Positions 2,366 through 57,834 of a stretch of DNA of 64,000 nucleotides are shown here, piece by piece. This stretch comes from Minisyncoccota bacterium (GTDB lineage: Bacteria > Patescibacteriota > Minisyncoccia > Phycocordibacterales > XYD1-FULL-46-19), in contig JBAZMZ010000002.1 of the NCBI GenBank assembly GCA_041649495.1, positions 18,793 to 82,792 of the forward strand, in the 5' to 3' direction. How positions within the stretch are numbered: the first letter of the stretch is position 1; every line of letters starts with the position of its first letter. Under the pieces are notes generated by a model that was not told the DNA's origin, ran no database searches, and saw nothing but the letters and a program-made list of their open reading frames with translations. Both the position numbers and the translations under genes were made by a program.

Positions 2366-2391
2366 TGATCATGATATGCTAAAATAAAGCT

Positions 2392-3180
2392 ATGACTTTA
2401 GTCAACATCATTTCAAATCTTAAGTTAAAAGACCAAGTATCAGCTCTCCTTTTGACTGGCTCCGGAGCTAGCTCAGACCTAAAAGACTATAGCGACTATG
2501 ATCTCATAGTTATTTTAGCCAATGACGAAACAGGTGTTAAATCGGTCTACACCTTTATTGATGATAAGTTTTCTGATATTTTCTTTTTTACCGAGCAGAC
2601 CATTAAAGAATTGACTGAAAAGACTGAGGTAAATCCAAATTCAATGGACGGAATTTTACTAAATTGGCTCAATAACGCCAAGATCGAGTTCGATAAGACA
2701 GGATCAATCTCAGAGCTTCAAAACAAGATTAAGAATGGCCACTTCAAAACCGTTATTCCCAAGGATGAAGTTACTAGTGTTTTGAATAAGGTTAATTATG
2801 GTTTTATTTGTAATCAGCGTTACTATCAATCTCAAGACGATCTTTATTTAAAGGCCCTAGATATTAAATTACTTTATAGCGTTGTTGAATTAGTTACGGC
2901 CTATTTTACTTTCCGTCAGATGCCCTGGCGAGGTGAAAAGCAGGCCATCAGCTATATTGAAACTAACGATCCTGCTTTTTATCGCCAGTTCCAAAATTTT
3001 CTGGCCTCTAAAGATATTGATGAGCGGATGCGATTTTATGGTAAGTTGTTTAACATCGCCCTCCCAGAATCTCTTAACCGTTGGGATAACAATATTGTTA
3101 TCGGTGAGCCTCACGATGGATCAAGCGAGGGAAGAGAAATGGCCAAAATCTTTTGGCAAGAGTTAATAAGAGCTTCCTAA
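2392..3180 (+). CDS. putative nucleotidyltransferase-fold protein
   Basis: N-terminal LLTGSGASSDLKDYSDYDLIVI resembles a minimal nucleotidyltransferase GS..D.D motif; rest unrecognised. Follows the ATP-grasp and asnB genes. Confidence 0.4.
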   Translation: MTLVNIISNLKLKDQVSALLLTGSGASSDLKDYSDYDLIVILANDETGVKSVYTFIDDKFSDIFFFTEQTIKELTEKTEVNPNSMDGILLNWLNNAKIEFDKTGSISELQNKIKNGHFKTVIPKDEVTSVLNKVNYGFICNQRYYQSQDDLYLKALDIKLLYSVVELVTAYFTFRQMPWRGEKQAISYIETNDPAFYRQFQNFLASKDIDERMRFYGKLFNIALPESLNRWDNNIVIGEPHDGSSEGREMAKIFWQELIRAS

Positions 3181-3305
3181 ATTTTCTATTTCACGTTTCT
3201 CTTGGTTCATTGTCAGATGAGCCATTTTTTGATATTCTAAAAGAACAATTGAATATGGTGGCCTAAACCTACGCTTTTTAACTAAGGCTGGGCATGGCTC
3301 AAAGT

Positions 3306-3450
3306 CCCATCCCTGACACTGAACCCCGCGTTCAGCAACTCAGGGATGGGCCGTGCACCGAAAGGTGTATGGGGTCGTAAGACCTAGCTAGCGCGGGGCT
3401 TAGTGTTTCTCGCAAACCCTAACACTGCCCCAGTCAGTGTTTTTATTTTC
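3306..3450 (+). promoter_or_regulatory. structured 5' leader: pseudoknotted hairpin, GAAA-tetraloop hairpin and intrinsic terminator just before the start codon
   Basis: 11-bp stem cccatccctga (3306-3316) / tcagggatggg (3340-3350) with 23-nt loop. Loop segment ccccgcg (3324-3330) is complementary to cgcgggg (3392-3398). gcacc-GAAA-ggtgt hairpin at 3355-3368. Terminator aacactg-ccccagt-cagtgtt plus T-run at 3421-3450. An alternative pairing agtgtt (3402-3407) / aacact (3421-3426) could act as antiterminator. Confidence 0.45.
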
Positions 3451-3458
3451 TAAAAAAT

Positions 3459-4061
3459 ATGAATGAAATAATTTACATATTAACCAATGAAGCCATGCCA
3501 GGATATATCAAAATCGGTATGACAAATAATTCTCTGGAAGAAAGAATTCGTCAACTAGACCGAACAAATATTCCACTACCTTTTGAGTGCTATTACGCTT
3601 GCGAAGTAGAAAATGCTCACGAGGAAGAGAAGTGGCTTCATTCAGTTTTTTCAGATAGGAGAGTTCGAGATGGTCGCGAGTTTTTTCAGATTGATCCAGA
3701 AAGAGTTGTTACCGCCATTCGAAAAGTTCAGAAGAGGGATATAACACCGAAGAATTTTATTAACACCACCAAAGAAGAAGAAAAAGAACTGGAAGAAGTG
3801 AAAAGCGTTAGAGCTAAATTTGATTTTACTCATTACGGGATACCCATAAATTCCACCCTAACTTTTTCTCGAGATCAGTCGACAAAAGCGGTGGTATTAG
3901 AAAATAACAAGATAGAAGTTGGCGGAAAAGTCACCAGTCTGTCGGCTTCTGCTCAAGAACTTTTAGGCTATAAGAGAGGCGTGGCGGGGACGCTTTATTG
4001 GCTCTATGAAGATGAGACTCTCGATGAGCGCCGGAGAAGGCTTGAAGGCAATGGTCTCTAA
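3459..4061 (+). CDS. GIY-YIG / T5orf172-domain protein
   Basis: N-terminal IYILTNEAMPGYIKIGMT and ..REFF.. pattern typical of the T5orf172 (GIY-YIG-like) domain. Confidence 0.55.
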   Translation: MNEIIYILTNEAMPGYIKIGMTNNSLEERIRQLDRTNIPLPFECYYACEVENAHEEEKWLHSVFSDRRVRDGREFFQIDPERVVTAIRKVQKRDITPKNFINTTKEEEKELEEVKSVRAKFDFTHYGIPINSTLTFSRDQSTKAVVLENNKIEVGGKVTSLSASAQELLGYKRGVAGTLYWLYEDETLDERRRRLEGNGL

Positions 4062-4195: not shown

Positions 4196-4861
4196 ATGGA
4201 TAACGAAAATAAGTCTTCTGAGGTTAAGACTAAAAATATAACCTTGGGATTAGTCGCTAGCTGGGTCATTGGTTTCTGTCTCATTGTCTTTGGGGTTACG
4301 AGTTTAGGTTCCTCTCCCGTGGCCAGTCTCCTTTCCATATTAGTAGGTATTTTTATTCTCCCGTCGGCTAGTAACTTTATACAGAAAAAGTTCAAGTTTA
4401 CAATGTCTCGAGGGATAAAGATTTTGGTCGTTTGTATTGTCCTTGTCGTTATTGGATCTGCTGAATCAAATAATCCCAGCAAATTAATTAAGTCGTCAAA
4501 TTCTAAAAAGATAGCATCTTCCGCTAAAGAGGTGGTTAAGCCAGAAGCTATTAAGATAACGGCAACTGCCTTGGCTGAGGCTTATAAATCTAACGAGGTG
4601 GCCGCTGACGCCAAGTACAAAAATAAATTAGTCGAAGTCTCTGGTTTTGTTGATAGTATTGGGAAAGACATTTTAGATTCCCCATACATTACTCTCAGTA
4701 CCGGCCAATATTCAGTAACATTTATTCAGTGTTTCTTCAGCAAAGCTGATGAGCCAGTGCTTGCCAAGTTTTCCAAGGGCCAATCACTTCGTCTTGAGGG
4801 AGAGGTCTCTGGTTTGACCTTGATCAGCGTTGTTCTAAAGGGTTGTCGGGCTGTTGAGTAA
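4196..4861 (+). CDS. membrane protein with C-terminal OB-fold (tRNA_anti-like) domain; paralog of the 13469 gene by N-terminus
   Basis: N-terminus MDNENKSSEVKTK followed by TM helices matches MDNKNESPEVETK of the 13469 gene. The C-terminal part resembles membrane-anchored tRNA_anti-like OB-fold proteins. Confidence 0.55.
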   Translation: MDNENKSSEVKTKNITLGLVASWVIGFCLIVFGVTSLGSSPVASLLSILVGIFILPSASNFIQKKFKFTMSRGIKILVVCIVLVVIGSAESNNPSKLIKSSNSKKIASSAKEVVKPEAIKITATALAEAYKSNEVAADAKYKNKLVEVSGFVDSIGKDILDSPYITLSTGQYSVTFIQCFFSKADEPVLAKFSKGQSLRLEGEVSGLTLISVVLKGCRAVE

Positions 4862-11590: not shown

Positions 11591-11797
11591 ATGGAAAAGA
11601 CTAAAAAACAGTTGTCTAACACCCAACACCAGAAAAGAAGAAAGCTTAAAAAAATCAGAAGAAGGAATAAGGGTAAAACAAACTATTTTGAGAGAACACT
11701 TAAAATAATAAATAATCTCGGGATAAAGAAACAAATATTAAAAGTTACAAAGAAGAGGAATAGTATTAAAAGAGGGATTTTACCACCTCATCCTTAA
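11591..11797 (+). other. basic 68-aa ORF in the same frame as the RT, one codon past its TGA stop; possible displaced thumb/C-terminal tail
   Basis: Frame identity (10499 and 11591 are congruent mod 3). Very basic sequence (KRRKLKKIRRRNKGK..). The RT lacks a thumb-like segment. Confidence 0.35.
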
Positions 11798-13113
11798 ATG
11801 GCAGTTATAATTTTTTGTTTCAAGATAATTTTACTCTTTAGGCATGTCAGCAATTCTCTCTTTTCAATATTTGTCCCATCTCTCAAAATAAACTTGGCAT
11901 AATTTTTGATATCAATTTCGCCGACTTCAATTTTGTCTTTTAATCCAAGGATGACTCTTTGGAATTTCTTGAAACGCTCAACTTCGGTTTTGATTTTTTC
12001 CTTGATACTGATTTCGTTTAGATCTATTTTGTCGAGGAGCAGTTCGAATTGTTTAATCAAATCTTTTTCTTCAATATATCCGCATTTACAGTGGGCATCT
12101 TTGGCCTTAGTACAGCCATAATATACGTAACGATGAACATTGCCATTTTGCTGTTTCTTGAATTTCTCGTCAGCACAAATACCTGATCCGCATAAACCGC
12201 AAGTCATTAATTTGGTAAAAGCGAATTCCTGATTTTCGACTCTTAAAACATTGCTCTTAAGTTGAGCATGGGTTTGATCGAATAATTCTCGAGTGATAAT
12301 TGGCTCGTGTTTGCCTTGATACCAATTTCCACTATTTTTCGGATATTCAAAGGCCCCGTAATAAAAGGGGTTATAGAGAATACGAAAGATATTGCCTAGA
12401 CTTAAATGCTTTTTGCCTGCCGACGTTCTGAAATTTAATTCAAACCGTAACCACATATAAAGTTTCTTTCCACTCCATTTATCATAAGCCACTTTCTCAA
12501 ACACTTGTTTAATAACTGGTGCCCGTTCTGGATCAATAATTGCTTGGCACTTTCGATCCGATCTTTTTTCATTGAGATAGCCCGTCGGTGGAACTCCCGG
12601 TCTTAAACCCATTTCGCACCTAGTCCTTAGGCCACGTTTTACATTAACGCTCTTGTTGTCATTTTCGAGTTTGGCTTGAGAACATAAGATCATTAACAGG
12701 AATTTTTCATTTGGTGAATTTATAAATGTCTGGCCATAAGTTCTGATTTGCAGAAGCAATTTTTGATCCATTAAATCAACAACTGAACCAAGATCGCCAG
12801 CGTTTCTTGAAAGTCTGTCAGGTGCCCAAGTCAAAATTCCATTGAACCGACCCTGCCTAATATCCTCGAGTAATTCCTTAAAAATTGGCCGTTGTCCCGA
12901 GTCCTTAGCTGAATGAGCCTCACGTCTAATATCGACAATTTCTAAATTATCCCTTTCGGCCAATTGGAGCATCTCTTTGACTTGCGAATCGATCGACAAG
13001 ATTTGGCGCTCTTCTGATTCGGTCGACTTGCGTGCATATAGGACATACTTAATCGGCGTTGGTGGGGCAACGATTGATCTATCCATTATTTGACTATCCA
13101 GCTCTATTTTCAT
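11794..13113 (-). CDS. large serine recombinase
   Basis: N-terminal resolvase catalytic domain (YARKSTESEERQ..SIDSQ), recombinase domain, and Cys-rich zinc-ribbon region (CGLCGS..YYGC..CKC). Confidence 0.9.
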   Translation of the reverse strand: MKIELDSQIMDRSIVAPPTPIKYVLYARKSTESEERQILSIDSQVKEMLQLAERDNLEIVDIRREAHSAKDSGQRPIFKELLEDIRQGRFNGILTWAPDRLSRNAGDLGSVVDLMDQKLLLQIRTYGQTFINSPNEKFLLMILCSQAKLENDNKSVNVKRGLRTRCEMGLRPGVPPTGYLNEKRSDRKCQAIIDPERAPVIKQVFEKVAYDKWSGKKLYMWLRFELNFRTSAGKKHLSLGNIFRILYNPFYYGAFEYPKNSGNWYQGKHEPIITRELFDQTHAQLKSNVLRVENQEFAFTKLMTCGLCGSGICADEKFKKQQNGNVHRYVYYGCTKAKDAHCKCGYIEEKDLIKQFELLLDKIDLNEISIKEKIKTEVERFKKFQRVILGLKDKIEVGEIDIKNYAKFILRDGTNIEKRELLTCLKSKIILKQKIITAI

Positions 13114-13302
13114 CGTCGTCCATTAATGACAGACCAGAAAACCTTGTAAAGTCTATGCAGAATTGCCCGTTTATTACATAATCGTGGGCTAGCTTTACAA
13201 AAAATACTGTCTGCGATAGGGTTGGACGGATACAATTTTTGTTGTATTATTATCTTTGACAATACCTAAACCAAACTTTGCGTTTGGCATGGTAAATATA
13301 GG

Positions 13303-13468
13303 AAATCCCACGCGAGTAGAAACGGCCACATAAGCCGGCACTTACTCGCGTGGGTCCTCACCCGAAAGGGAGAGGGATAGTTCCGAAAGGAGCTATCGTC
13401 GGTCTTGTGTGGCCATTTGTGTCCCACAAAAATTATTAGCAATTATTATTAAATCCCACGCGAGGTAT
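13303..13468 (+). promoter_or_regulatory. structured 5' leader: pseudoknotted hairpin, two GAAA-tetraloop hairpins, and a triplicated segment allowing alternative pairing over the start region
   Basis: 12-bp stem cccacgcgagta (13307-13318) / tactcgcgtggg (13343-13354) with 24-nt loop. Loop segment ggccaca (13324-13330) is complementary to tgtggcc (13408-13414). GAAA hairpins at 13356-13375 and 13375-13396. aaatcccacgcgag occurs at 13303-13316 and again at 13451-13464, 4 nt before the ATG at 13469. Confidence 0.45.
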
Positions 13469-14119
13469 ATGGATAATAAAAACGAGTCTCCCGAGGTTGA
13501 GACTAAAAAGAAAAACCGAGTTCAAATAATTAGTTGGATTATTGGTGTACTAATTGGATTCACTGGAATCGTGCAGATTTTTTCAGAGCCAGCTTTGGGA
13601 ATTTTGTTCATTCTTCTTGCGGTCATCATTATCCCCGTCACTAGAGAAAAAATTACTCAAAAACTAAATAACCGCTTGTCGAAGAATATAATCATCGGCA
13701 TTGCAATTATTACCCTTGTTATCGTTGGGGTTGTCGTGAGTGATGACCTAGAAACAAACAAGCAAGTGGCAAAGATTAATAAGCCAAAACCCGTAGAAAC
13801 TGAAACGGTCCATGATTTTGTCAAAATTGGAGATATTGGATATTTGAGATTGCCAGGAACCAGGGATCCAGAGCAAATGATCTGTTTGGGCCCGACCAAA
13901 GAAGCTTATGATCAAGTAATGAGCTCCATAAGTGCTAAAGATCTTTTGGGCATTGTCGAAGCTGGTGGATTTTGCGTTGGTAATGGTACAAAAGTAAAAG
14001 TCATTGGTGGTAGTTTTTCTCTCAAACAAGTTAGAATTATAGAAGGAGTGAGAGAGATAGATAAAAATGTTGTCTTACGATCTGGCTGGGTGGCAACAGA
14101 ATGGGTGGTTAAAAATTAA
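13469..14119 (+). CDS. membrane protein, N-terminal paralog of the 4196 gene
   Basis: ATG at 13469 gives MDNKNESPEVETKKK plus TM helices, matching the N-terminus of the 4196 gene. The C-terminal domain is different and unrecognised. Confidence 0.6.
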   Translation: MDNKNESPEVETKKKNRVQIISWIIGVLIGFTGIVQIFSEPALGILFILLAVIIIPVTREKITQKLNNRLSKNIIIGIAIITLVIVGVVVSDDLETNKQVAKINKPKPVETETVHDFVKIGDIGYLRLPGTRDPEQMICLGPTKEAYDQVMSSISAKDLLGIVEAGGFCVGNGTKVKVIGGSFSLKQVRIIEGVREIDKNVVLRSGWVATEWVVKN

Positions 14120-15034
14120 TTGTTTATTATGAAAACTTTTCTTTTTAAAAAAATCCTGTTCGGCATAGGTGTGGTTTTTGTCCTCTTAATATTAATCGGT
14201 ATCATTTTCCCGACCTCTGATTCCGAAATAAGCAAAAGGGAAATTAAAAATGTTGAAGTTGACACTCGAGTGGCAATTTCAAATCTAAAAGAGCAAGAAG
14301 CCGTTGTCCCTAAAGTTCAGAACCTAAGTCCTAAAGTAGAGGCCACAAAAGAAACGGTTGCTCAAGTTAAGATTCCTCCGGCTGTCCCTACCTATACTTA
14401 TTACTCCGTAACGAGCGTTGTTGATGGTGATACTTTGAAAGTAAATATCAATGGAAATACCGAGACACTACGTCTAATTGGTATGGACACCCCAGAAACG
14501 GTTGATCCCCGAAAACCTGTTCAATGTTTTGGGAAAGAAGCTTCAAATAAAGCCAAAGAATTATTAACTGGCAAAAAAGTTCGAATTGAAAAAGATCCAA
14601 CTCAAGGCGAACGAGATAAATATAATCGCTTGCTTGCCTATATCTACCGTGAAGATGGATTATTCTATAACAAATATATGATTGAAATTGGTTATGCCCA
14701 TGAGTACACCTATGGCACTCCCTACAAGTATCAAGCAGAATTTAAAGTGGCTCAGAGGTCTGCTCAGGCTTCATTTGCTGGGTTATGGTCTCCGAATACC
14801 TGCAATGGGGATACAACTTCATCCGCGGGCACAACGACTGTCGCTCCCGTCACTCAGACAACGCAAACGGTGGGCAAGTTTTACACTTCTTCTTATTCAA
14901 CTTCAAAATACTATTACCCAGCAGAATGTGACGATTGGAAAAGTTTAAGTGTAACATACCTTAAATCTTTTGATTCACTCGACGCTCTTCTTTTAGCCTA
15001 TCCTTCAAAAGCTAAAAGTCCTCAGTGTGATTAG
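14120..15034 (+). CDS. membrane-anchored thermonuclease (staphylococcal nuclease-like)
   Basis: N-terminal TM helix then SNase-fold motifs VVDGDTLKV...RLIGMDTPE...YNRLLAYIY and a Thr/Ser-rich C-terminus. Confidence 0.85.
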   Translation: MFIMKTFLFKKILFGIGVVFVLLILIGIIFPTSDSEISKREIKNVEVDTRVAISNLKEQEAVVPKVQNLSPKVEATKETVAQVKIPPAVPTYTYYSVTSVVDGDTLKVNINGNTETLRLIGMDTPETVDPRKPVQCFGKEASNKAKELLTGKKVRIEKDPTQGERDKYNRLLAYIYREDGLFYNKYMIEIGYAHEYTYGTPYKYQAEFKVAQRSAQASFAGLWSPNTCNGDTTSSAGTTTVAPVTQTTQTVGKFYTSSYSTSKYYYPAECDDWKSLSVTYLKSFDSLDALLLAYPSKAKSPQCD

Positions 15035-49064: not shown

Positions 49065-50655
49065 GGTAATAGTATAATAAGAGCGCGGGGTAGAGTAACG
49101 GTAATTCGCAAGGCTCATAACCTTGAGACGCCGGTTCGAATCCGGCCTCCGCAACATGTCCAGACGGCATCGTCTGAAAATCCTCATTTAGCTTGAAGAT
49201 ACAAGACAAAATCGCGGTTCCAAATGTCCCAGTGGTTTTTTGATAGGTGATGCCTTGACTTAGAACCATTTTTTGGAACCTCACCTTTTGCGCGGATTCC
49301 ATTAACCACCACTGATTAGCAGTGTCAGCAATTAGCTGGTTCGTTCCAGTGATGGCCTCCTCGAGATCAAGTTCTTCAATTTCGGCCTCGTTTCTTGAGA
49401 CCCGAAGACTAGCCATTTGATTATCAAGTGAGTCTTTTAACTCTCGATATTCATCTTTGGAGATTTCTTGTTCAACTCTCATCCCCAGTAGCTCCCGCTT
49501 CTTTTTTTCAAGTTTTGAGATCTCCTGTTGATAAAAATCTTTCTCTTGTTGAGCTGTCGAATGTCTTGTTTGATAGACCTCAATAACCGTTTGTTTAAAT
49601 AGGGCCAAGAATTCCTCGGACGGGGTGACTTTTTGGAGAAAATTATAGAATTCACCCTCCAGAACATCTCTAGCGATACCCCGATTACAATGAACGCAGG
49701 CTGGATTGTAGCAATTATAGTAGGCGTATTTTTTACCCCGGCCCGTGTTCCAAGAGCCCGTTAGCCCACGATGGCATTCGCAAGAGACAAAACGTCGGAG
49801 AGGGAAGTCGGGGTTATCAGAGGCTCTTGGCCGGGTGGCCCCACTTGATTTTTGGGTTTTGACCATTTGAATTTTTTGGTATTCATCAATCGTGATCATC
49901 GGTTGGTGTTGCCCTCGGTGTTCTTCTTTTGTCCAAGGATTGACTAAAATTCCGGCGTAGAATTTATTGACCAAAATAATCTCCCAAAGTTGCTTTCGCA
50001 TCAGTTTCCCCGTTCTTGTTCTTAATCCCCAGCTATTACTTTCTTCAGCCAATCGAGTGATTGTGTGGTTTCCCTTGAGATAAAGTCTTAAGCCTTTCTG
50101 GATTAGATAAAAACGCTTGTCGTCGGGAATGTCTGGTAGATTTTTCCGACGATCGGTTCGCAACTTTGAATTTGTGTAGCCAATCGGAGGCGACCAACAC
50201 CAGATACCCTCTCTCAATTTCGCTTTCATTCCGCCGGTGCAACGTTGTTTTCTGACTTCATTCTCGAACTCGGCATAGCCCGCCAAAAAGGTTTCCATTA
50301 ATTTGCCGATATGATCTTGCGTAATTGGCTCAGTTACCGATTGGAGTGTGATGCCGTATTGGGTTAATTTAGCACGCACCGCAAAGTGGTCGGTAGTGTT
50401 GCGGGCGAAGCGGTCAATTTTCCAAACAATAAAATAATCAAGATCTTCTTTGTTTAAGCGGCAGAATTCAAGCGCTTTTAAAAATTCAGTCCGATTGGTG
50501 GCGGTGGCCGACTCTCCTCGTTCTACAAAAACCTTAACCACTTCAATATTATTTTTGGTGGCATAATCAAGACAGGCCCGTTCTTGAGAATCAAGGCTAG
50601 TCCCTTGAACCTGCTCGTTTGATGATACTCGACAATAGATGATTCCTTTTTTCAT
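49057..50655 (-). CDS. large serine recombinase (second copy), tRNA-adjacent
   Basis: N-terminal IYCRVSSNEQ...SLDSQ resolvase domain, recombinase domain, Cys-rich zinc ribbon. The 3' end of the ORF runs antisense across the tRNA-Met gene (tail ..AGFEPAS..). Confidence 0.85.
   Translation of the reverse strand: MKKGIIYCRVSSNEQVQGTSLDSQERACLDYATKNNIEVVKVFVERGESATATNRTEFLKALEFCRLNKEDLDYFIVWKIDRFARNTTDHFAVRAKLTQYGITLQSVTEPITQDHIGKLMETFLAGYAEFENEVRKQRCTGGMKAKLREGIWCWSPPIGYTNSKLRTDRRKNLPDIPDDKRFYLIQKGLRLYLKGNHTITRLAEESNSWGLRTRTGKLMRKQLWEIILVNKFYAGILVNPWTKEEHRGQHQPMITIDEYQKIQMVKTQKSSGATRPRASDNPDFPLRRFVSCECHRGLTGSWNTGRGKKYAYYNCYNPACVHCNRGIARDVLEGEFYNFLQKVTPSEEFLALFKQTVIEVYQTRHSTAQQEKDFYQQEISKLEKKKRELLGMRVEQEISKDEYRELKDSLDNQMASLRVSRNEAEIEELDLEEAITGTNQLIADTANQWWLMESAQKVRFQKMVLSQGITYQKTTGTFGTAILSCIFKLNEDFQTMPSGHVAEAGFEPASQGYEPCELPLLYPALLLYYYLK
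49084..49154 (+). tRNA. tRNA-Met (CAT anticodon), initiator-like
   Basis: Hand-folded cloverleaf: acceptor cgcgggg/ctccgca with C1:A72 mismatch, D-stem gagt/attc with A11:U24, anticodon arm caagg-ctCATaa-ccttg, T-arm gccgg-ttcgaat-ccggc, discriminator A. CCA not encoded. Confidence 0.85.
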
Positions 50656-55188: not shown

Positions 55189-55333
55189 ATTTATAAGATA
55201 ATAATATAACTTTTAGGACCAAGATTAAAGGGTTAGACAGCTTTATTTTTAATTGGTTTGGTGCTACTCTATACTTAACAACTAAATAAGGAGACCTAAC
55301 CCAATAATCTCGATTGTTGGCATGGTCAAAAAG

Positions 55334-55433
55334 CCACTGCTGGCTACTAAACCCGTCGTTTAGGAGCGCCAGCAGTGGTTACCACCCGAAAGGATGGTAG
55401 GTGGCCTCGGCCATCGCCTAGCGACGGGTTTAG
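55334..55433 (+). promoter_or_regulatory. structured 5' leader: pseudoknotted hairpin plus GAAA-tetraloop hairpin (third copy of the architecture)
   Basis: 11-bp stem ccactgctggc (55334-55344) / gccagcagtgg (55368-55378) with 23-nt loop. Loop segment ctaaacccgtcg (55347-55358) is complementary to cgacgggtttag (55422-55433). ttaccaccc-GAAA-ggatggtag hairpin at 55380-55403. Confidence 0.45.
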
Positions 55434-55469
55434 TGGTTGACAAATAAATTATCAATTAAAAATAAAATC

Positions 55470-57251
55470 ATGAAAAAATATCTATTTATCGCTCTGGTTC
55501 TCTCTCTGATCATCTTGCCTAAAATCAGTTCGGCTGATTCTTTGGGCGTTACCAGTATTACGGCGGTTAAAACCTCGGCTCTTGCTAACAATTCTTTTAC
55601 TGATGGTTGGCAATGGCTATTTAATATCACGGTGCCCTCTGGTGAAGATAATCTGCAAATGAAATTCCTTGATTGGACTAATGGCGCCTTAACGATTCCC
55701 ACTGGTGGCAATATGCGTTTCTACTCGGCTCAATCATTAAACGCGACTGATGCTAATAGCGCCATTGCCGTTAACTCGGCCAATACTTATGGCGATAATT
55801 TAATTCTTGATCCAACAAAGGGCCAGCAAGTTCAAGTGATGGTAGAGGTTAAAATTCCTACGGGAACCACTGGTGGATCATATTCAACGAGTTATGGGAT
55901 TCAGACGACTGGGACTACTACACCCAGTGCTCCGATTCTTAGCCTCAAATTAAGTGATGATTCTCCGGCAACTGGGACTTCCTCTGCGGTAAGCAATCTC
56001 GGTGTCTTTGGAATCAAAACTAAAGATAATACTGTTAGTTGGATTACCGATTTGAGTTTCAATCTCAATATTAAGGAGGGTTATAGTCCCGAATCCCTCT
56101 TATCCCAAAATGGTGGCGAGTGGACGAGCAATGACACTCTAACCTTTCACAATCTCAATACTCGATTAAGCCAGGATTGGCATTATTTTACTTTGAATAA
56201 CCTCAGCGTCCTCCACCCCAAAACAGCCCCCACCTTTACAATTTCGGCAACTTTAGATGCCAGCGAAATCAAGGCCGAGGATAATTCTGGCAATAGTCTT
56301 GATGTTTCTAGTCTGGATGATATTACGAGTAATGAGATGACTTTTATTCCACCTCCACCAGAAGAAATAGGAACTCTTAGGGTCTCACTAAATTCTAGTA
56401 ACCCGATGGCTTCAACGGTTTTTGCTTCTAATAATGGTAAAGTGGAGAATGTTTCGTTGCTTGCCTTCGATGTTAAGGCTGAGAATTTGGACATTTCTGT
56501 CACTGATCTAGATGTTTTGATTCAAAAGACGGACGAAGGTACGGCGATAGCGACAACCGCGTTTTTGTGTGAAGGCCAAACGGTCTTGGGTTCGGCTACT
56601 GTCAATCCCACTAATGGCACTGCGACTTTTTCAAATCTAAATTTTTCTATTCCTCAAGACACAACCAAAACCTTAACTTTGTTGGTTGATATTACAAGTG
56701 CTAATAGCGCCCCCTCTGTTTTTACAGCCTCCCTTGATGGCGCCGAGATGACGGCGATAGATTCAAATTATAATACTGTTGTGCCAACTGGTTCTGCGAC
56801 GGGGAACGATATAGCTATCCAAAGTGCTGGGGCCGTGATCAATTTAGTTAGTTCGAGTATTGGTATCCCCGTGGTTAATCCTGGAACTGGTTCGACAACG
56901 GCCTTGTCAGGGACATTTAATTTAAATTTTACGGCTGTCGGCGGTGACTTGGAAGAACCCGTCGCTAGCGACTTCGTTGTTAAAGCGACAAATAATCCCG
57001 CTCACACTGAGGCAATCACAATAACTAACCTTGGCATTAGTGTATCTTCACCAACTCCTTCGTTAATTGCCGATGGCTCTTCTGCCTCAATCACTTTGAC
57101 TCCAATATTAGAAAATTCTCAAGTTACTGAAAGTGGCGACTATTTCTTTTATGTCGAATCAATAAAATCTACCATTTCTGGTCAGTCTTCAATTACTAAG
57201 ACGACAGGTTTAGAAAGTTATATAACGGCTCCTGCCCCTTTTACCAAATAA
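55470..57251 (+). CDS. large secreted Ser/Thr-rich surface protein
   Basis: Start MKKYLFIALVLSLIILPKISSA (signal peptide). Long low-complexity T/S/N-rich body. Confidence 0.6.
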   Translation: MKKYLFIALVLSLIILPKISSADSLGVTSITAVKTSALANNSFTDGWQWLFNITVPSGEDNLQMKFLDWTNGALTIPTGGNMRFYSAQSLNATDANSAIAVNSANTYGDNLILDPTKGQQVQVMVEVKIPTGTTGGSYSTSYGIQTTGTTTPSAPILSLKLSDDSPATGTSSAVSNLGVFGIKTKDNTVSWITDLSFNLNIKEGYSPESLLSQNGGEWTSNDTLTFHNLNTRLSQDWHYFTLNNLSVLHPKTAPTFTISATLDASEIKAEDNSGNSLDVSSLDDITSNEMTFIPPPPEEIGTLRVSLNSSNPMASTVFASNNGKVENVSLLAFDVKAENLDISVTDLDVLIQKTDEGTAIATTAFLCEGQTVLGSATVNPTNGTATFSNLNFSIPQDTTKTLTLLVDITSANSAPSVFTASLDGAEMTAIDSNYNTVVPTGSATGNDIAIQSAGAVINLVSSSIGIPVVNPGTGSTTALSGTFNLNFTAVGGDLEEPVASDFVVKATNNPAHTEAITITNLGISVSSPTPSLIADGSSASITLTPILENSQVTESGDYFFYVESIKSTISGQSSITKTTGLESYITAPAPFTK

Positions 57252-57255
57252 TAAT

Positions 57256-57834
57256 ATGAAAACAAAACTAATAATTATCAGCTTAACTTTAATCTTGGCC
57301 GGACACGCTAATTCTGTCTTGGCTTCAGAAATCACCGGCGTTCTCTCAACCGGCTTAACTGGTACAGTTAACGAAACGCTCACTGGGATCGTCGTTACTC
57401 CTCCTGCTCCTGTGGTTGTTCCTCCAGTTAGTTCTGGTGGCGGAGGTGGTGGCTATTATAGCCCTATTCTGGCTTCTGCCGTTCCCCCTACTGCGACCTC
57501 AACTCTTTTGGCCATCCCTCAAGTTCTCGGGGCCTCCACCTATCGCTTTACCAAGACGCTAAGATTGGGCTCAAGCGGTAATGATGTTAAAGAACTTCAA
57601 GAGAAACTTCGAACTGAAGGATTCTTTACTCATCCTGTTTCAACTGGTTACTTTGGGACGATCACTGAGAAAGCCGTTAAAGATTTTCAGAAAGCTCGAT
57701 TCTTGAAAGTTTCTGGTCTTGTTAATGCTTCTACTCGTAAGATTCTTAATTTCTCAACGGCTGATTATGAAACCTATAGGGGTTTAATTCTCAAGTTGCT
57801 TGAATTACAGTTAGAGATTGCCAAATTAGCTTAA
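57256..57834 (+). CDS. secreted protein with peptidoglycan-binding domain
   Basis: Signal peptide, Pro/Gly linker, then PG_binding_1-like LRLGSSGNDVKELQEKL...GYFGTITEKAVKDFQ. Confidence 0.7.
   Translation: MKTKLIIISLTLILAGHANSVLASEITGVLSTGLTGTVNETLTGIVVTPPAPVVVPPVSSGGGGGGYYSPILASAVPPTATSTLLAIPQVLGASTYRFTKTLRLGSSGNDVKELQEKLRTEGFFTHPVSTGYFGTITEKAVKDFQKARFLKVSGLVNASTRKILNFSTADYETYRGLILKLLELQLEIAKLA

Follow-up and report, generated by a model that had tools for sequence, protein, structure and literature searches.

Judged from its sequence, the feature at 3306-3450 corresponds to the middle and 3' portions of a LOOT RNA. LOOT (Rfam RF03000) is an orphan motif already known, and three copies of it lie in the window, i.e., the complete stretch of 64,000 nucleotides analyzed. 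The copies are new members of a known family, and their expression platform lies beyond the reach of the Rfam model: according to folding and duplex predictions, a strand immediately 3' of the model is paired with the entire P2 hairpin interior over 17-18 bp, at about -30 kcal/mol. Considering covariation, predicted folds and gene position, we regard it as rather likely that LOOT is a bistable 5' leader which either terminates transcription conditionally or occludes the start site.

The window was searched with the RF03000 covariance model (gathering cut-off 46.4 bits). Three matches with 68.7 to 85.5 bits and E-values from 2.5e-11 to 9.9e-15 were obtained (Table 1), each of which comprises model positions 1-121 of 121. 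No further or degenerate copy was detected in the window, neither at E ≤ 0.1 with the Rfam model nor with the extended model R1, which reaches past the LOOT core into the 3' switch strand. R1 scored 95.1 bits for copy 1 (3260-3418), 91.9 bits for copy 2 (13263-13432) and 94.2 bits for copy 3. An earlier note on this DNA had described a recurrent structured RNA architecture at three sites, which these matches confirm, without recognizing the element as LOOT. It had also let the feature begin at 3306; the true start is 3260, and the conserved 5' hairpin P1 had been left out.

In the Rfam alignments, six nested helices (P1 outer and inner, P2, P2a, P3 and P4) are present in all three copies and GNRA-type loops are found on P3 and P4. 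The core starts with P1, followed by P2, which encloses the inner hairpin P2a, and by P3 and P4. The blocks CCUAAaCC and GGCAUGG, the A-rich J1/2 linker and CCGAAAGG are conserved and were found in each window copy; conserved unpaired nucleotides of the ligand-pocket type are few in the core. The P1 outer helix of copy 1 is formed by GGCC (3260-3263) and GGCU (3296-3299), and its conserved internal loop by CCUAAAC (3262-3268) and GCAUGG (3292-3297). This loop (CCUAAA...CAUGG in the Rfam alignment, together with a GAAA loop on P3) presumably resembles the 11-nt GAAA-tetraloop receptor (CCUAAG...UAUGG). The 11-bp hairpin with its 23-nt interior, the GAAA-tetraloop hairpin between the paired strands and the 278-nt leader without an ORF (gap 3181-3458) had been seen correctly in the earlier note. 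The 23 nt described there as a loop contain a 6-bp hairpin of their own, namely P2a, and P4 was absent from that description.

LOOT was first published by Weinberg et al. (2017, NAR 45:10811; PMC5737381), in whose main text it is not discussed; the authors' supplementary description may cover some of the features reported here. The Rfam 14 paper shows it as a 'metagenomic-based RNA' (PMC7779021) and the CaCoFold paper counts six LOOT helices (PMC7657543). A literature search found no paper on LOOT function. The cores in the window do not differ from the published family. New are the covarying 3' switch strand, the U/G tract and the downstream alternative pairings, all of which lie past the last model position (P4). 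The consistent 5'-leader position is added as well, and so is the host range: according to the record titles, the 109 LOOTs stem mostly from genomes labelled CPR/Patescibacteria.

Homologues were collected using an exact-match pattern for three conserved blocks, hence, divergent LOOTs were not sampled. The same pattern retrieved 112 model-confirmed LOOTs from genome contigs. One locus, L119, carries two pattern copies. By eye, 11 of 119 genome pattern matches were set aside (L021, L024, L045, L056, L062, L064, L067, L084, L109, L113 and L115), and R1 gave no match in any of these 11 loci. A viral collection yielded three pattern matches, with L121 as the sole true LOOT. Tight arrays of LOOT cassettes were rejected, as, among 122 loci, R1 gave just one additional copy (L069). 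An Rfam-like model with P2 derived from MAFFT alignments was dropped, since P2 was out of register in these sequence-only alignments. For this reason, P2 and P2a were judged sequence by sequence in 98 homologues. A P2 of at least 9 bp was present in 93% of the loci compared to 2% in the cross-locus control, and P2a was more stable than its own shuffles in 99%.

Table 1. Coordinates of the three LOOT copies, their helices and the neighboring features in the window.
Feature	Position	Strand	Remarks
Promoter-like site, copy 1	3210-3238	+	TTGTCA, 17 nt, TATTCT, TG before the second hexamer; consensus match only
ACAAT, copy 1	3245-3249	+	agrees with ACAAY, a -10-like motif close upstream of many LOOTs
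LOOT core, copy 1	3260-3385	+	Rfam 70.9 bits
P1 hairpin, copy 1	3260-3299	+	Rfam alignment, model positions 1-43; MFE fold
P2, copy 1	3306-3316 / 3340-3350	+	11 bp, CCCATCCCTGA / TCAGGGATGGG, 23-nt interior
P2a, copy 1	3319-3324 / 3330-3335	+	folds alone at -6.2 kcal/mol
P3, copy 1	3351-3372	+	GAAA loop 3360-3363
P4, copy 1	3373-3384	+	GUAA loop; Rfam model ends at 3385
Switch strand, copy 1	3387-3409	+	outside the Rfam model; followed by U/G-rich tract UUAGUGUUUC
P5, putative antiterminator hairpin, copy 1	3395-3431	+	in unconstrained MFE and centroid structure
Terminator-like hairpin, copy 1	3421-3449	+	AACACTG/CAGTGTT 3421-3441, then U tract TTTATTTT; terminator scan
Gene after copy 1	3459-4061	+	200-aa T5orf172/MUG113 (GIY-YIG-like) protein, Pfam 8.5e-19
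LOOT copy 2 with tail	13263-13422	+	core 13263-13397; Rfam 68.7 bits
P2, copy 2	13307-13318 / 13343-13354	+	
P2a, copy 2	13323-13326 / 13334-13337	+	
P3, copy 2	13356-13375	+	
P4, copy 2	13376-13397	+	
Switch strand, copy 2	13398-13418	+	pairs with P2 interior, -30.2 kcal/mol (duplex); U/G tract up to 13422
14-nt exact duplicate AAATCCCACGCGAG, copy 2	13451-13464 (element 13451-13471)	+	copy of J1/2 linker and P2 5' arm (13303-13316)
Gene after copy 2	13469-14119	+	216-aa predicted membrane protein
Second gene after copy 2	14120-15034		staphylococcal-nuclease-domain gene
LOOT copy 3 with tail	55293-55439	+	core 55293-55415; Rfam 85.5 bits
P2, copy 3	55333-55344 / 55368-55379	+	
P2a, copy 3	55347-55352 / 55358-55363	+	
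P3, copy 3	55380-55399	+	
P4, copy 3	55400-55415	+	
Switch strand, copy 3	55417-55434	+	pairs with 55346-55364, -29.0 kcal/mol (duplex); then U/G tract UUUAGUGGUUG
Gene after copy 3	55470-57251	+	593-aa protein, N-terminal signal-peptide-like segment, no Pfam match
Second gene after copy 3	57256-57834		peptidoglycan-binding-domain gene

The switch strand starts about 2-6 nt after the core, is complementary to the entire P2 interior and has a U/G-rich tract behind it. When 109 LOOTs were aligned with MAFFT, blind to structure, 88.2% of the cells of this helix (termed H) were paired, whereas column shuffles gave 69.6% (0 of 500 reached the observed value) and slid registers 45-54%. In the same LOOTs, 327 double-change cells were counted (100 in shuffles) and compensatory changes were seen in 16 of the 17 pairs. 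Complementarity of at least 9 bp within the own locus was found in 92%, across loci in 28% and after shuffling in 17%. The duplex with the own tail had a mean energy of -25.7 kcal/mol, compared to -15.5 kcal/mol with the tail of another locus. The Rfam E-values, the covariation of H, and the cross-locus and shuffle controls rule out a chance origin. Many of the pairs in H are U-G or G-U, which makes the helix strand-specific and, thus, points to RNA. The H-type pseudoknot proposed earlier for copy 1 was based on 7 nt, ccccgcg (3324-3330) and cgcgggg (3392-3398). This loop-to-downstream complementarity exists and is selected, but its extent had been understated: 3387-3405 pairs with 3317-3336 over 18 bp, interrupted by a single mismatch and a single bulge (-29.7 kcal/mol, RNAduplex), and the full helix takes the whole P2 interior.

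H covers 76% of the P2 interior and leaves linkers of 0 to 1.5 nt (about 0-2 nt). Therefore, it should replace P2a, and probably P2, rather than coexist with them. In the modelled structures H excludes P2a, whereas the exclusion of P2 is probable on steric grounds; judged by the short linkers of the full-length helix, at most a partial H would coexist with P2. RNAalifold, applied to the homologue alignment, picks H in place of P2. Since the switch strand is complementary to the P2 interior, the leader can adopt two mutually exclusive and equally stable folds. Their mean predicted energies were -62.8 kcal/mol (Fold A) and -62.4 kcal/mol (Fold B), with a ddG of 0.4 ± 4.3 (n = 91); for the window copies, ddG values of -0.2, -0.2 and -4.0 kcal/mol were calculated. 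Fold A would correspond to the LOOT structure of Rfam; its switch strand would be either unpaired or part of the downstream hairpin P5. In Fold B, the 17-18-bp helix H would displace P2a and, sterically, P2. The G/C-rich strand and the U tract would then be in a terminator-like configuration and the P2 3' arm would be released. The unconstrained MFE fold of copy 1 reproduces the LOOT helices and contains P5 in addition (z = -4.66); that of copy 3 prefers H over P2.

Downstream of the core, alternative pairings were found which differ between the copies. In P5 of copy 1, GGGGC..AGUGUU (3395-3407) pairs with AACACU-GCCCC (3421-3431). The antiterminator claimed in the earlier note, in which AGTGTT (3402-3407) is complementary to AACACT (3421-3426), is part of this hairpin, whose full length is 11 bp. 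The terminator-like element ends 9 nt before the ATG at 3459, and in folding calculations its hairpin forms when H is forced or the switch strand is sequestered. H and the antiterminator share a strand (3' strand of the former, 5' arm of the latter), which makes the three structures mutually exclusive in the manner of a riboswitch expression platform. The terminator/antiterminator pair noted earlier holds in silico for copy 1, to which the compact terminator is specific: a G/C-rich stem with short loop and U tract, which defines an intrinsic terminator, is formed only by the hairpin 3421-3441 with TTTATTTT. The scanner found no compact terminator in copies 2 and 3. In copy 2, the duplicate AAATCCCACGCGAG ends 4 nt before the ATG at 13469 and can pair with the P2 3' arm (13345-13354, 10 bp). 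For copy 3, no expression platform beyond H was recognizable. Among the homologues, 23% of LOOTs carry a duplicated P2 5' arm at the ATG (cross-locus control, 2%), and the P2 3' arm and the start region are complementary over at least 9 bp in 27% (control 5%). Complementarity of at least 7 bp between the tail and the downstream sequence, as in P5, is modestly enriched (63% versus 38% across loci).

At least six T within the 9 nt after H are found in 80% of the loci compared to 4.6% in the background; the U tracts of the window copies, with 5-6 T in 9, are weaker than the family consensus. The A-rich 5' flank pairs with the U tract in the 109-LOOT alignment. The idea that the ACAAY region and the U tract form a closing helix was rejected, because the complementarity equals the cross-locus control (5.84 versus 5.80 bp). 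Canonical intrinsic terminators have loops of 3-8 nt. If H served as the stem of a terminator, about 65-70 nt (P2 3' arm, P3 and P4) would lie in its loop, and H with the U/G tract was not called by the terminator scanner in copies 2 and 3.

A co-oriented ORF of at least 60 aa begins 0-100 nt after the tail in 91% of the loci, while the opposite-orientation control gave 16%. The median distance from tail to ATG is 36 nt (IQR 25-51); copies 2 and 3 are located between divergent genes, and their tails lie only about 25-45 nt from the ATG. Of 110 LOOTs, 55% have ACAAY within -22 to -4 of CCTAA compared to 5% in a control window, and this motif appears to be better read as a -10-like promoter element. 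SD-like motifs precede 19% of the LOOT-downstream genes and 16% of the other long ORFs in the same DNA; since they are equally rare elsewhere, an IRES-like role cannot be deduced from a missing Shine-Dalgarno sequence. Among 105 downstream proteins, no common theme was found, as no Pfam family occurred in more than 7. The proteins include zinc-ribbon/TM proteins, bPH, DUF4352, RM methylases, PDC-S11/S18 and PDC-S57. The product of the gene after copy 1 matches the phage-defence candidate PDC-S57 over its full length (3.8e-67, PADLOC). As these genes are functionally heterogeneous, no ligand suggests itself.

In the proposed switch, a promoter close upstream of each of the three LOOTs would drive its transcription on the + strand, and the RNA would constitute the 5' leader of the following gene. 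In Fold A of copy 1, the switch strand would pair with the 5' arm of the terminator, which would result in antitermination (gene on). In Fold B this arm would be freed and the terminator would form 9 nt before the ATG (gene off). For copy 2, the released P2 3' arm would pair with the start-codon duplicate of the P2 5' arm, so that initiation would be occluded. The scheme presumes that H with the U tract terminates transcription, which of the two folds is the ON state, and that a cellular signal, i.e., a ligand, a protein or kinetics, biases the choice of fold.

Next in credibility, although unlikely, is that LOOT represents a free-standing sRNA of ~150 nt with H and the U tract as its Rho-independent terminator or 3' clamp. 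The neighboring gene would then be separate or expressed by leaky read-through, and regulation would occur by base pairing of the sRNA, for instance through its P2 3' arm, with the start regions of adjacent or other mRNAs. Rfam types RF03000 as 'Gene; sRNA' (function unknown), the G/C-rich strand and the U/G tract are strongly conserved, and the heterogeneity of the downstream genes would fit. In roughly one locus in four, the P2 3' arm is complementary to the start region of the gene that follows, a pairing that could operate both in cis and in trans. Furthermore, LOOT looks like a separate transcript in one subgroup of the Woesebacteria/Microgenomates type (L026, L029, L033, L094, L101 and L111), because its tails and genes are separated by a σ70-like promoter (10 of 12 matches); an internal promoter was seen there only. 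In most loci, however, the ~36 nt from tail to ATG are too short for a promoter plus 5' UTR, and some ATGs directly follow the U tract (L001, L060, L070 and L015). A constitutive terminator would leave the covariation of P2/P2a and the balanced fold energies unexplained, as well as the second, canonical terminator of copy 1, whose 5' arm pairs with the tail.

It is improbable that LOOT is a non-switching structural 5' leader, i.e., a stabilizing cap, an insulator or a landing pad for proteins or ribosomes in front of acquired cargo, with H being part of one static pseudoknotted fold. The compact architecture with its GNRA loops and the P1 internal loop, which we take to be receptor-like, the missing functional theme downstream and the association with mobile-element contexts would all suit such a scaffold; the absence of Shine-Dalgarno sequences is uninformative here, since SD-like motifs are rare genome-wide. 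A full H, though, is incompatible with P2a and, considering the coverage of the interior and the linker lengths given above, hardly compatible with an intact 11-bp P2. The near-zero ddG, P5, the duplicate at the ATG and the terminator of copy 1 are switch-like rather than scaffold-like features.

Of the 109 LOOT loci outside the window, 41 encode a large serine recombinase homologue within the at most 8 kb of sequence covered per locus; in 36 of these 41 it is located upstream and divergent. Between the window and locus L075, the recombinase gene and the intergenic sequence are similar at the nucleotide level up to precisely the LOOT 5' end, past which LOOT class and cargo gene differ. Both observations would suit a structure acting as DNA, as a folded single-stranded recombination site or att-site neighborhood for the recombinase, but this is most improbable: GNRA tetraloops and one-strand G-U pairs are RNA signatures, the LOOT strand is always that of the downstream gene, most LOOTs (copies 1 and 3 included) have no directly adjacent recombinase, and multi-helix folds of 150 nt are unlike the known att sites of large serine recombinases, which are short duplex sites of about 40-50 bp.

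The bistable leader preferred here shares several properties with known systems. In the transcriptional ZTP/pfl and preQ1 riboswitches, a strand of the aptamer pseudoknot is shared with the expression platform. Similarly, the 3' strand of LOOT has two alternative partners, a terminator or start-occluding helix competes with the core fold, the position is in the 5' UTR, and copy 1 shows a three-way arrangement of aptamer, antiterminator and terminator. In contrast to these riboswitches, H consumes a whole hairpin interior and probably unzips P2, so that global folds would compete instead of a local strand swap, and neither a ligand nor a common downstream pathway is suggested. Of the properties expected from a riboswitch, the same-strand 5' position and mutually exclusive structures overlapping the aptamer were found in silico; a pathway shared by the 105 downstream proteins was not. 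The HMP-PP (thiS) riboswitch has been described as a 'terminator-embedded aptamer' (PMC6478431). In LOOT, core elements and the putative terminator stem are likewise interleaved and not arranged side by side. However, the thiS aptamer is located inside a compact terminator hairpin, whereas the putative stem H spans ~65-70 nt with two hairpins. The c-di-GMP-I riboswitch (GEMM) is present in multiple copies per genome upstream of heterogeneous, often surface-related genes and has a GNRA tetraloop-receptor contact. It provides a precedent for an RNA sensing a global signal rather than a pathway metabolite, but it has no sequence or structural homology to LOOT, and no Rfam match to GEMM was found in the window.

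A more far-reaching version, which we consider doubtful, is that LOOT represents the sensor part of a novel RNA switch class, largely restricted to CPR/Patescibacteria and their mobile elements. H with the U tract, P5 and the start-codon duplicate would serve as its built-in platform, and it would gate horizontally acquired cargo in response to a global cue; LOOT and its gene would also form exchangeable cassettes beside a conserved large serine recombinase. The cargo would be candidate anti-phage genes, nucleases and surface proteins; candidate cues are a second messenger, a signal of host contact or of phage infection, or an RNA-binding protein dedicated to LOOT.

LOOT has been an orphan structured RNA known only from metagenomes, to which neither host biology nor a function was attached. 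Here, it appears in multiple copies as a leader 5' of accessory genes; most of the genomes carry a CPR/Patescibacteria label, and the contexts are linked to mobile elements and defence. The public model stops short of the strongly covarying strand which, as predicted, makes the RNA bistable. An 'unknown sRNA' thereby becomes a concrete and testable regulatory hypothesis. In a review on Patescibacteria (PMC11665869), riboswitches are mentioned only as a possible genetic tool and no native regulatory RNA is named. A widespread RNA switch, if true, would therefore be a biological lead and, possibly, a handle for genetic tools in Patescibacteria.

The whole window was scanned against Rfam at curated thresholds (gathering score of RF03000, 46.4 bits), which gave three matches to a single family, LOOT RNA (RF03000), at exactly the three sites where an earlier note had described a recurrent architecture. 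No fourth copy was found in the window at E ≤ 0.1. The three occurrences (copies 1, 2 and 3) are additional members of a known family. LOOT originates from the survey of 224 candidate structured RNAs by Weinberg et al. 2017 (PMC5737381); the main text of that paper does not discuss it. It is displayed as a 'metagenomic-based RNA' in the Rfam 14 paper (PMC7779021), is given ~43 bp, six helices and many 'cross-covariations' in the CaCoFold paper (PMC7657543), and received two further covarying pairs in Rfam 15. A literature search for a function of LOOT found no paper, and no native regulatory RNA is named in a Patescibacteria review that was searched (PMC11665869). The core consists of helices P1, P2 (with P2a in its interior), P3 and P4. 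The stem with its interior and the GAAA hairpin of the earlier note are present as P2 and P3, and the P2/P2a/P3 region belongs to LOOT as seen there, but P1 and P4 had been missed. The RF03000 model stops at P4, and the downstream partner strand of the note lies 7-13 nt further 3'. The window holds a single tRNA gene, tRNA-Met (CAT), at 49084-49155.

Features of the LOOT copies and of neighbouring genes, in window coordinates
Feature	Position	Strand	Details
LOOT copy 1 core	3260-3385	+	Rfam 70.9 bits, full length
LOOT copy 2 core	13263-13397	+	Rfam 68.7 bits, full length
LOOT copy 3 core	55293-55415	+	Rfam 85.5 bits, full length
Copy 1 P1 hairpin	3260-3299	+	5' part of LOOT
Copy 1 P2	3306-3316 / 3340-3350	+	11 bp, 23-nt interior containing P2a
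Copy 1 P3	loop 3360-3363	+	GAAA-loop hairpin
Copy 1 P4	3373-3384	+
Copy 1 P5	tail 3395-3407 with 3421-3431	+	unconstrained MFE
Copy 1 terminator-like hairpin	3421-3441, then TTTATTTT	+	scan
Gene before copy 1	2392-3180		weak Polbeta/NTP_transf_2 nucleotidyltransferase match, below Pfam curated cut-offs
Copy 1 downstream gene	3459-4061		T5orf172/MUG113, GIY-YIG-like; full-length PADLOC PDC-S57 match, E 3.8e-67
Gene following copy 1 gene	4196-4861		tRNA_anti-like OB domain
Large serine recombinase	11797-13113	-	Resolvase + Recombinase + Zn_ribbon_recom; 152 nt upstream of copy 2, divergent
Staphylococcal-nuclease-domain protein	14120-15034		directly 3' of copy 2-led membrane protein gene

Homologues were collected by exact match to three conserved blocks (CCTAANCC...GGCATGG...CCGAAAGG), a pattern independent of the partner strand. 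A scan of one genome per species gave at least 119 pattern loci. Eleven loci were excluded by eye as chance matches, leaving 112 instances, 109 of them with enough flank. R1, a covariance model extended to 155 positions, recovers 112/112 instances and 0/11 excluded loci; with it, copies 1, 2 and 3 of the window reach 95.1, 91.9 and 94.2 bits. Among the matches listed, record titles are mostly CPR/Patescibacteria MAGs, including Saccharibacteria, Paceibacterota/Parcubacteria, Microgenomates, Doudna-, Falkow-, Uhr- and Woesebacteria; a minority of genuine LOOTs carry other titles as recorded, e.g. 'uncultured Gammaproteobacteria' or archaeal names.

The strand 3' of P4 (tail, or switch strand) pairs with the P2 interior in a long-range helix, H. 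When the P2 interior is compared with the first 60 nt 3' of P3, the longest complementary stretch has a mean length of 11.25 bp (n = 109, matches listed). It is at least 9 bp long in 92% of loci with their own tail; matching each interior to another locus's tail gives 28%, and shuffled sequences give 17%. The pairing sequences are wholly unlike across subclasses (CCCCGCGUU/AGCGCGGGG, AAGCUCGUCGUCAG/CUGGCGGCGAGCUU, GGUCUUCUGA/UCGGGAGACC, GGCCACAUAAG/CUUGUGUGGCC). In a structure-blind MAFFT alignment (A3) of these 109 sequences, H comprises 17 bp (columns 88-104 with 202-218) with 88.2% of cells paired, compared with 69.6% in column shuffles (0/500 reach the observed value) and 45-54% when the partner is slid by 1-3 columns. 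Double-change cells number 327 versus 100 in shuffles, and 16 of the 17 pairs have compensatory changes. Because U-G and G-U pairs are frequent, H is tied to the + strand, and this indicates RNA. Copies and covariation elsewhere, on which the earlier note had staked its reading, are found, and chance complementarity is excluded by the covariation and by the cross-locus and shuffled controls. A 5'-3' closing helix was also tested and dropped.

The duplex of the whole P2 interior with the tail has predicted energies of -29.7, -30.2 and -29.0 kcal/mol in copies 1, 2 and 3 (18-21 bp), the local P2a hairpin only -6.2, -5.7 and -4.4 kcal/mol. Over 98 homologues the mean energy of the own-tail duplex is -25.7 kcal/mol, and that of a duplex with a foreign tail -15.5. 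The own-tail duplex takes up 76% of the P2 interior, with unpaired ends of 0 and 1.5 nt, and H and P2a are therefore mutually exclusive. We infer that P2, if all its 11 bp stay intact, likewise leaves no room for full-length H: the loop strand would need to span an 18-bp helix without linker. The pseudoknot of the earlier note, between ccccgcg (3324-3330) and cgcgggg (3392-3398), is a real and covarying pairing, but one that is larger than described and excludes P2a; overall, the note's observation stands and its interpretation was partly right. P2 is itself conserved, with at least 9 bp in 93% of loci versus 2% in a cross-locus control on the same data set, and in 99% of loci shuffled versions of P2a are less stable than P2a itself; RNAalifold on such alignments selects H over P2. 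Each leader was folded twice, with P2 enforced (Fold A, the Rfam fold) and with H enforced (Fold B). Mean energies were -62.8 and -62.4 kcal/mol, the difference being 0.4 ± 4.3 kcal/mol and within ±5 in 75% of 91 leaders; for copies 1, 2 and 3 it was -0.2, -0.2 and -4.0 kcal/mol. Two covarying, mutually exclusive folds of equal predicted energy are what characterises a bistable RNA.

The internal loop of P1 (3262-3268 / 3292-3297 and its equivalents in other LOOTs) reads CCUAAA...CAUGG. The classical 11-nt GAAA-tetraloop receptor is CCUAAG...UAUGG, from which the LOOT loop differs solely in an A-C at the G-U position. This suggests a tertiary contact between P1 and the P3 loop, which would stabilise Fold A.

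The G/C-rich 3' strand of H is followed by a U/G-rich tract (consensus UUU(U/G)UGU(U/G)UU), with at least 6 T in the 9 nt after H in 80% of loci versus 4.6% background; the tract pairs partly with the A-rich 5' flank of H. H and this tract look like an intrinsic terminator and may act as one, except that the 'loop' is ~65-70 nt long, with P3 and P4 inside. Folded without constraint, the copy 1 leader has an MFE structure (-80.6 kcal/mol, z = -4.66) made up of the LOOT fold and P5, a pairing of the tail with a downstream segment, of which 3421-3427 doubles as 5' arm of the terminator-like hairpin. This hairpin, which with its T tract ends 9 nt before the ATG (3459) as the note had stated, forms in constrained folding when H is enforced or the tail is kept from pairing; therefore, the proposed antiterminator holds in silico, coupled to H. 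P5 of at least 7 bp is found in 63% of loci versus 38% in the cross-locus control. The terminator scan gave no compact terminator in copy 2. There, a 14-nt exact duplicate of the P1-P2 linker (J1/2) and P2 5' arm (13303-13316 = 13451-13464) ends 4 nt upstream of the ATG and could pair with the P2 3' arm. Such a duplicate of at least 9 nt is present in 23% of loci (cross-locus 2%), always 0-8 nt before an ATG, and the P2 3' arm can pair with the start region over at least 9 bp in 27% versus 5%. For copy 3 the terminator scan gave no platform besides H, which its MFE favours. The gap before the copy 1 gene (3181-3458) is free of ORFs, as noted earlier. A terminator-like hairpin (TGGTTCATTGTCAGATGAGCCA, then TTTTTTGATA) lies at 3203-3232, 23 nt past the stop of the upstream gene, and the real leader is therefore shorter than this 278-nt gap. 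The TTTTTTGATA tail is similar to U tracts after H in other genomes.

A co-oriented ORF of at least 60 aa begins 0-100 nt past the tail in 91% of 104 loci (matches listed; median distance 36 nt, IQR 25-51), versus 16% in an otherwise identical search in opposite orientation; in a few loci the ATG directly follows the U tract. The intergenic regions that hold copies 2 and 3 are divergent, and therefore LOOT must carry the promoter of the downstream gene, or that promoter must lie within ~25-45 nt. In 55% of loci, versus 5% in a control window, a -10-like ACAAY/TACAAT motif is present in the 22 nt preceding P1, and the nearest upstream gene is divergent in 57/95. Thus, judged from gene arrangement and motifs, LOOT would usually open a transcription unit as 5' leader of the following gene. 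Shine-Dalgarno-like motifs at -17 to -5 precede 16% of 513 long ORFs overall and 14% in the window (crude first-ATG measure); an inference from missing motifs was dropped, as they are rare genome-wide here. A free-standing sRNA with H as terminator would agree with the Rfam type ('Gene; sRNA') and with a Woesebacteria/Microgenomates-type subgroup (L026, L029, L033, L094, L101, L111), in which a conserved σ70-like TTGACA-18-TAATAT site (10 of 12 matches to the promoter consensus) directly follows the tail (e.g. L029 5396-5425, L094 1759-1788) and a strong Shine-Dalgarno motif, GGAGG, precedes the downstream gene. In this subgroup LOOT may be a separate short transcript. For the family, the sRNA reading leaves unexplained the very short spacing between tail and ATG, the conserved competing fold and the second terminator of copy 1.

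In the most likely mechanism, that of a switching leader, Fold A would form first, during transcription; if it persisted, the tail would stay free or in P5 and the gene would be expressed. If the tail invaded P2a and P2, Fold B would result, with three possible outcomes: a terminator-like H with U tract, a freed terminator arm (copy 1), or occlusion of the start region by the freed P2 3' arm (copy 2). Fold A is presumably the ON state, and a biasing signal presumably exists. A static structural leader conflicts with mutual exclusivity and balanced energies.

Among 105 downstream proteins, the commonest Pfam matches are zinc ribbons (7), DUF4352, bPH and DUF5655 (3 each) and DNA methylases; nothing in this set hints at a ligand. 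Matches to known or candidate anti-phage proteins (PDC-S11/S18, RM methylases) make up about 15%, the copy 1 gene with its PDC-S57 match among them. The nuclease-domain gene at 14120-15034 is probably in one operon with the copy 2-led gene. Over 3.9 kb the window shares 96.6% identity with L090 (JBAYKU010000012.1), a Candidatus Paceibacterota MAG. Homologues of the window's recombinase (25-74% identity) are found within 8 kb in 41/109 other LOOT loci (matches listed; L009, L016, L030, L046, L049, L059, L072, L075, L076, L081, L089, L090 and others), upstream and divergent in 36/41, with a gap of only 134-273 nt in about a dozen. Large serine recombinases would be expected only a few times per genome, and the association would lie far above this expectation. 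Window 12062-13263 and L075 4138-5337, from a MAG labelled Saccharibacteria, share 74% nucleotide similarity across recombinase gene and intergenic region; the similarity ends exactly at the LOOT 5' end, past which LOOT subclass and downstream gene differ. LOOT and its gene may thus be an exchangeable module beside a conserved recombinase. In L072, L081, L046, L059, L016, L009, L076 and L030 the intergenic region contains a conserved block of tandem direct repeats of ~9-11 nt (e.g. GTAGGTAAC...GTAGGTAAC, GTTGGCAAC...GTTGGCAAC), in L072 additionally an 8-bp palindrome (CCCTCTAG..CTAGAGGG). This block may represent an operator, promoter region or att site. That LOOT itself acts as a DNA-level recombination site is suggested by the recombinase association, and one-strand G-U pairs and GNRA loops speak against it.

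Upstream of LOOT there are also ParB-methylases, OLD/AAA_15, AbiEii and phage-type genes. On a predicted viral contig (L121, IMG/VR UViG_3300025323_000435), LOOT (2388-2538, minus strand; Rfam 75 bits, R1 102 bits) precedes a NucS-like/PDC-S11 gene, convergent with the adjacent terminase large-subunit gene and of a family common to the genes after LOOT in L028, L042, L044, L057 and L085. Given the recombinases, phage-type neighbours and viral contig, LOOT-led genes look like cargo of CPR mobile elements. The covarying switch strand, the balance of two folds, the leader position and the mobile context are absent from the public model and were not found in the literature searched; they bring the function of this orphan RNA within reach of experiment.
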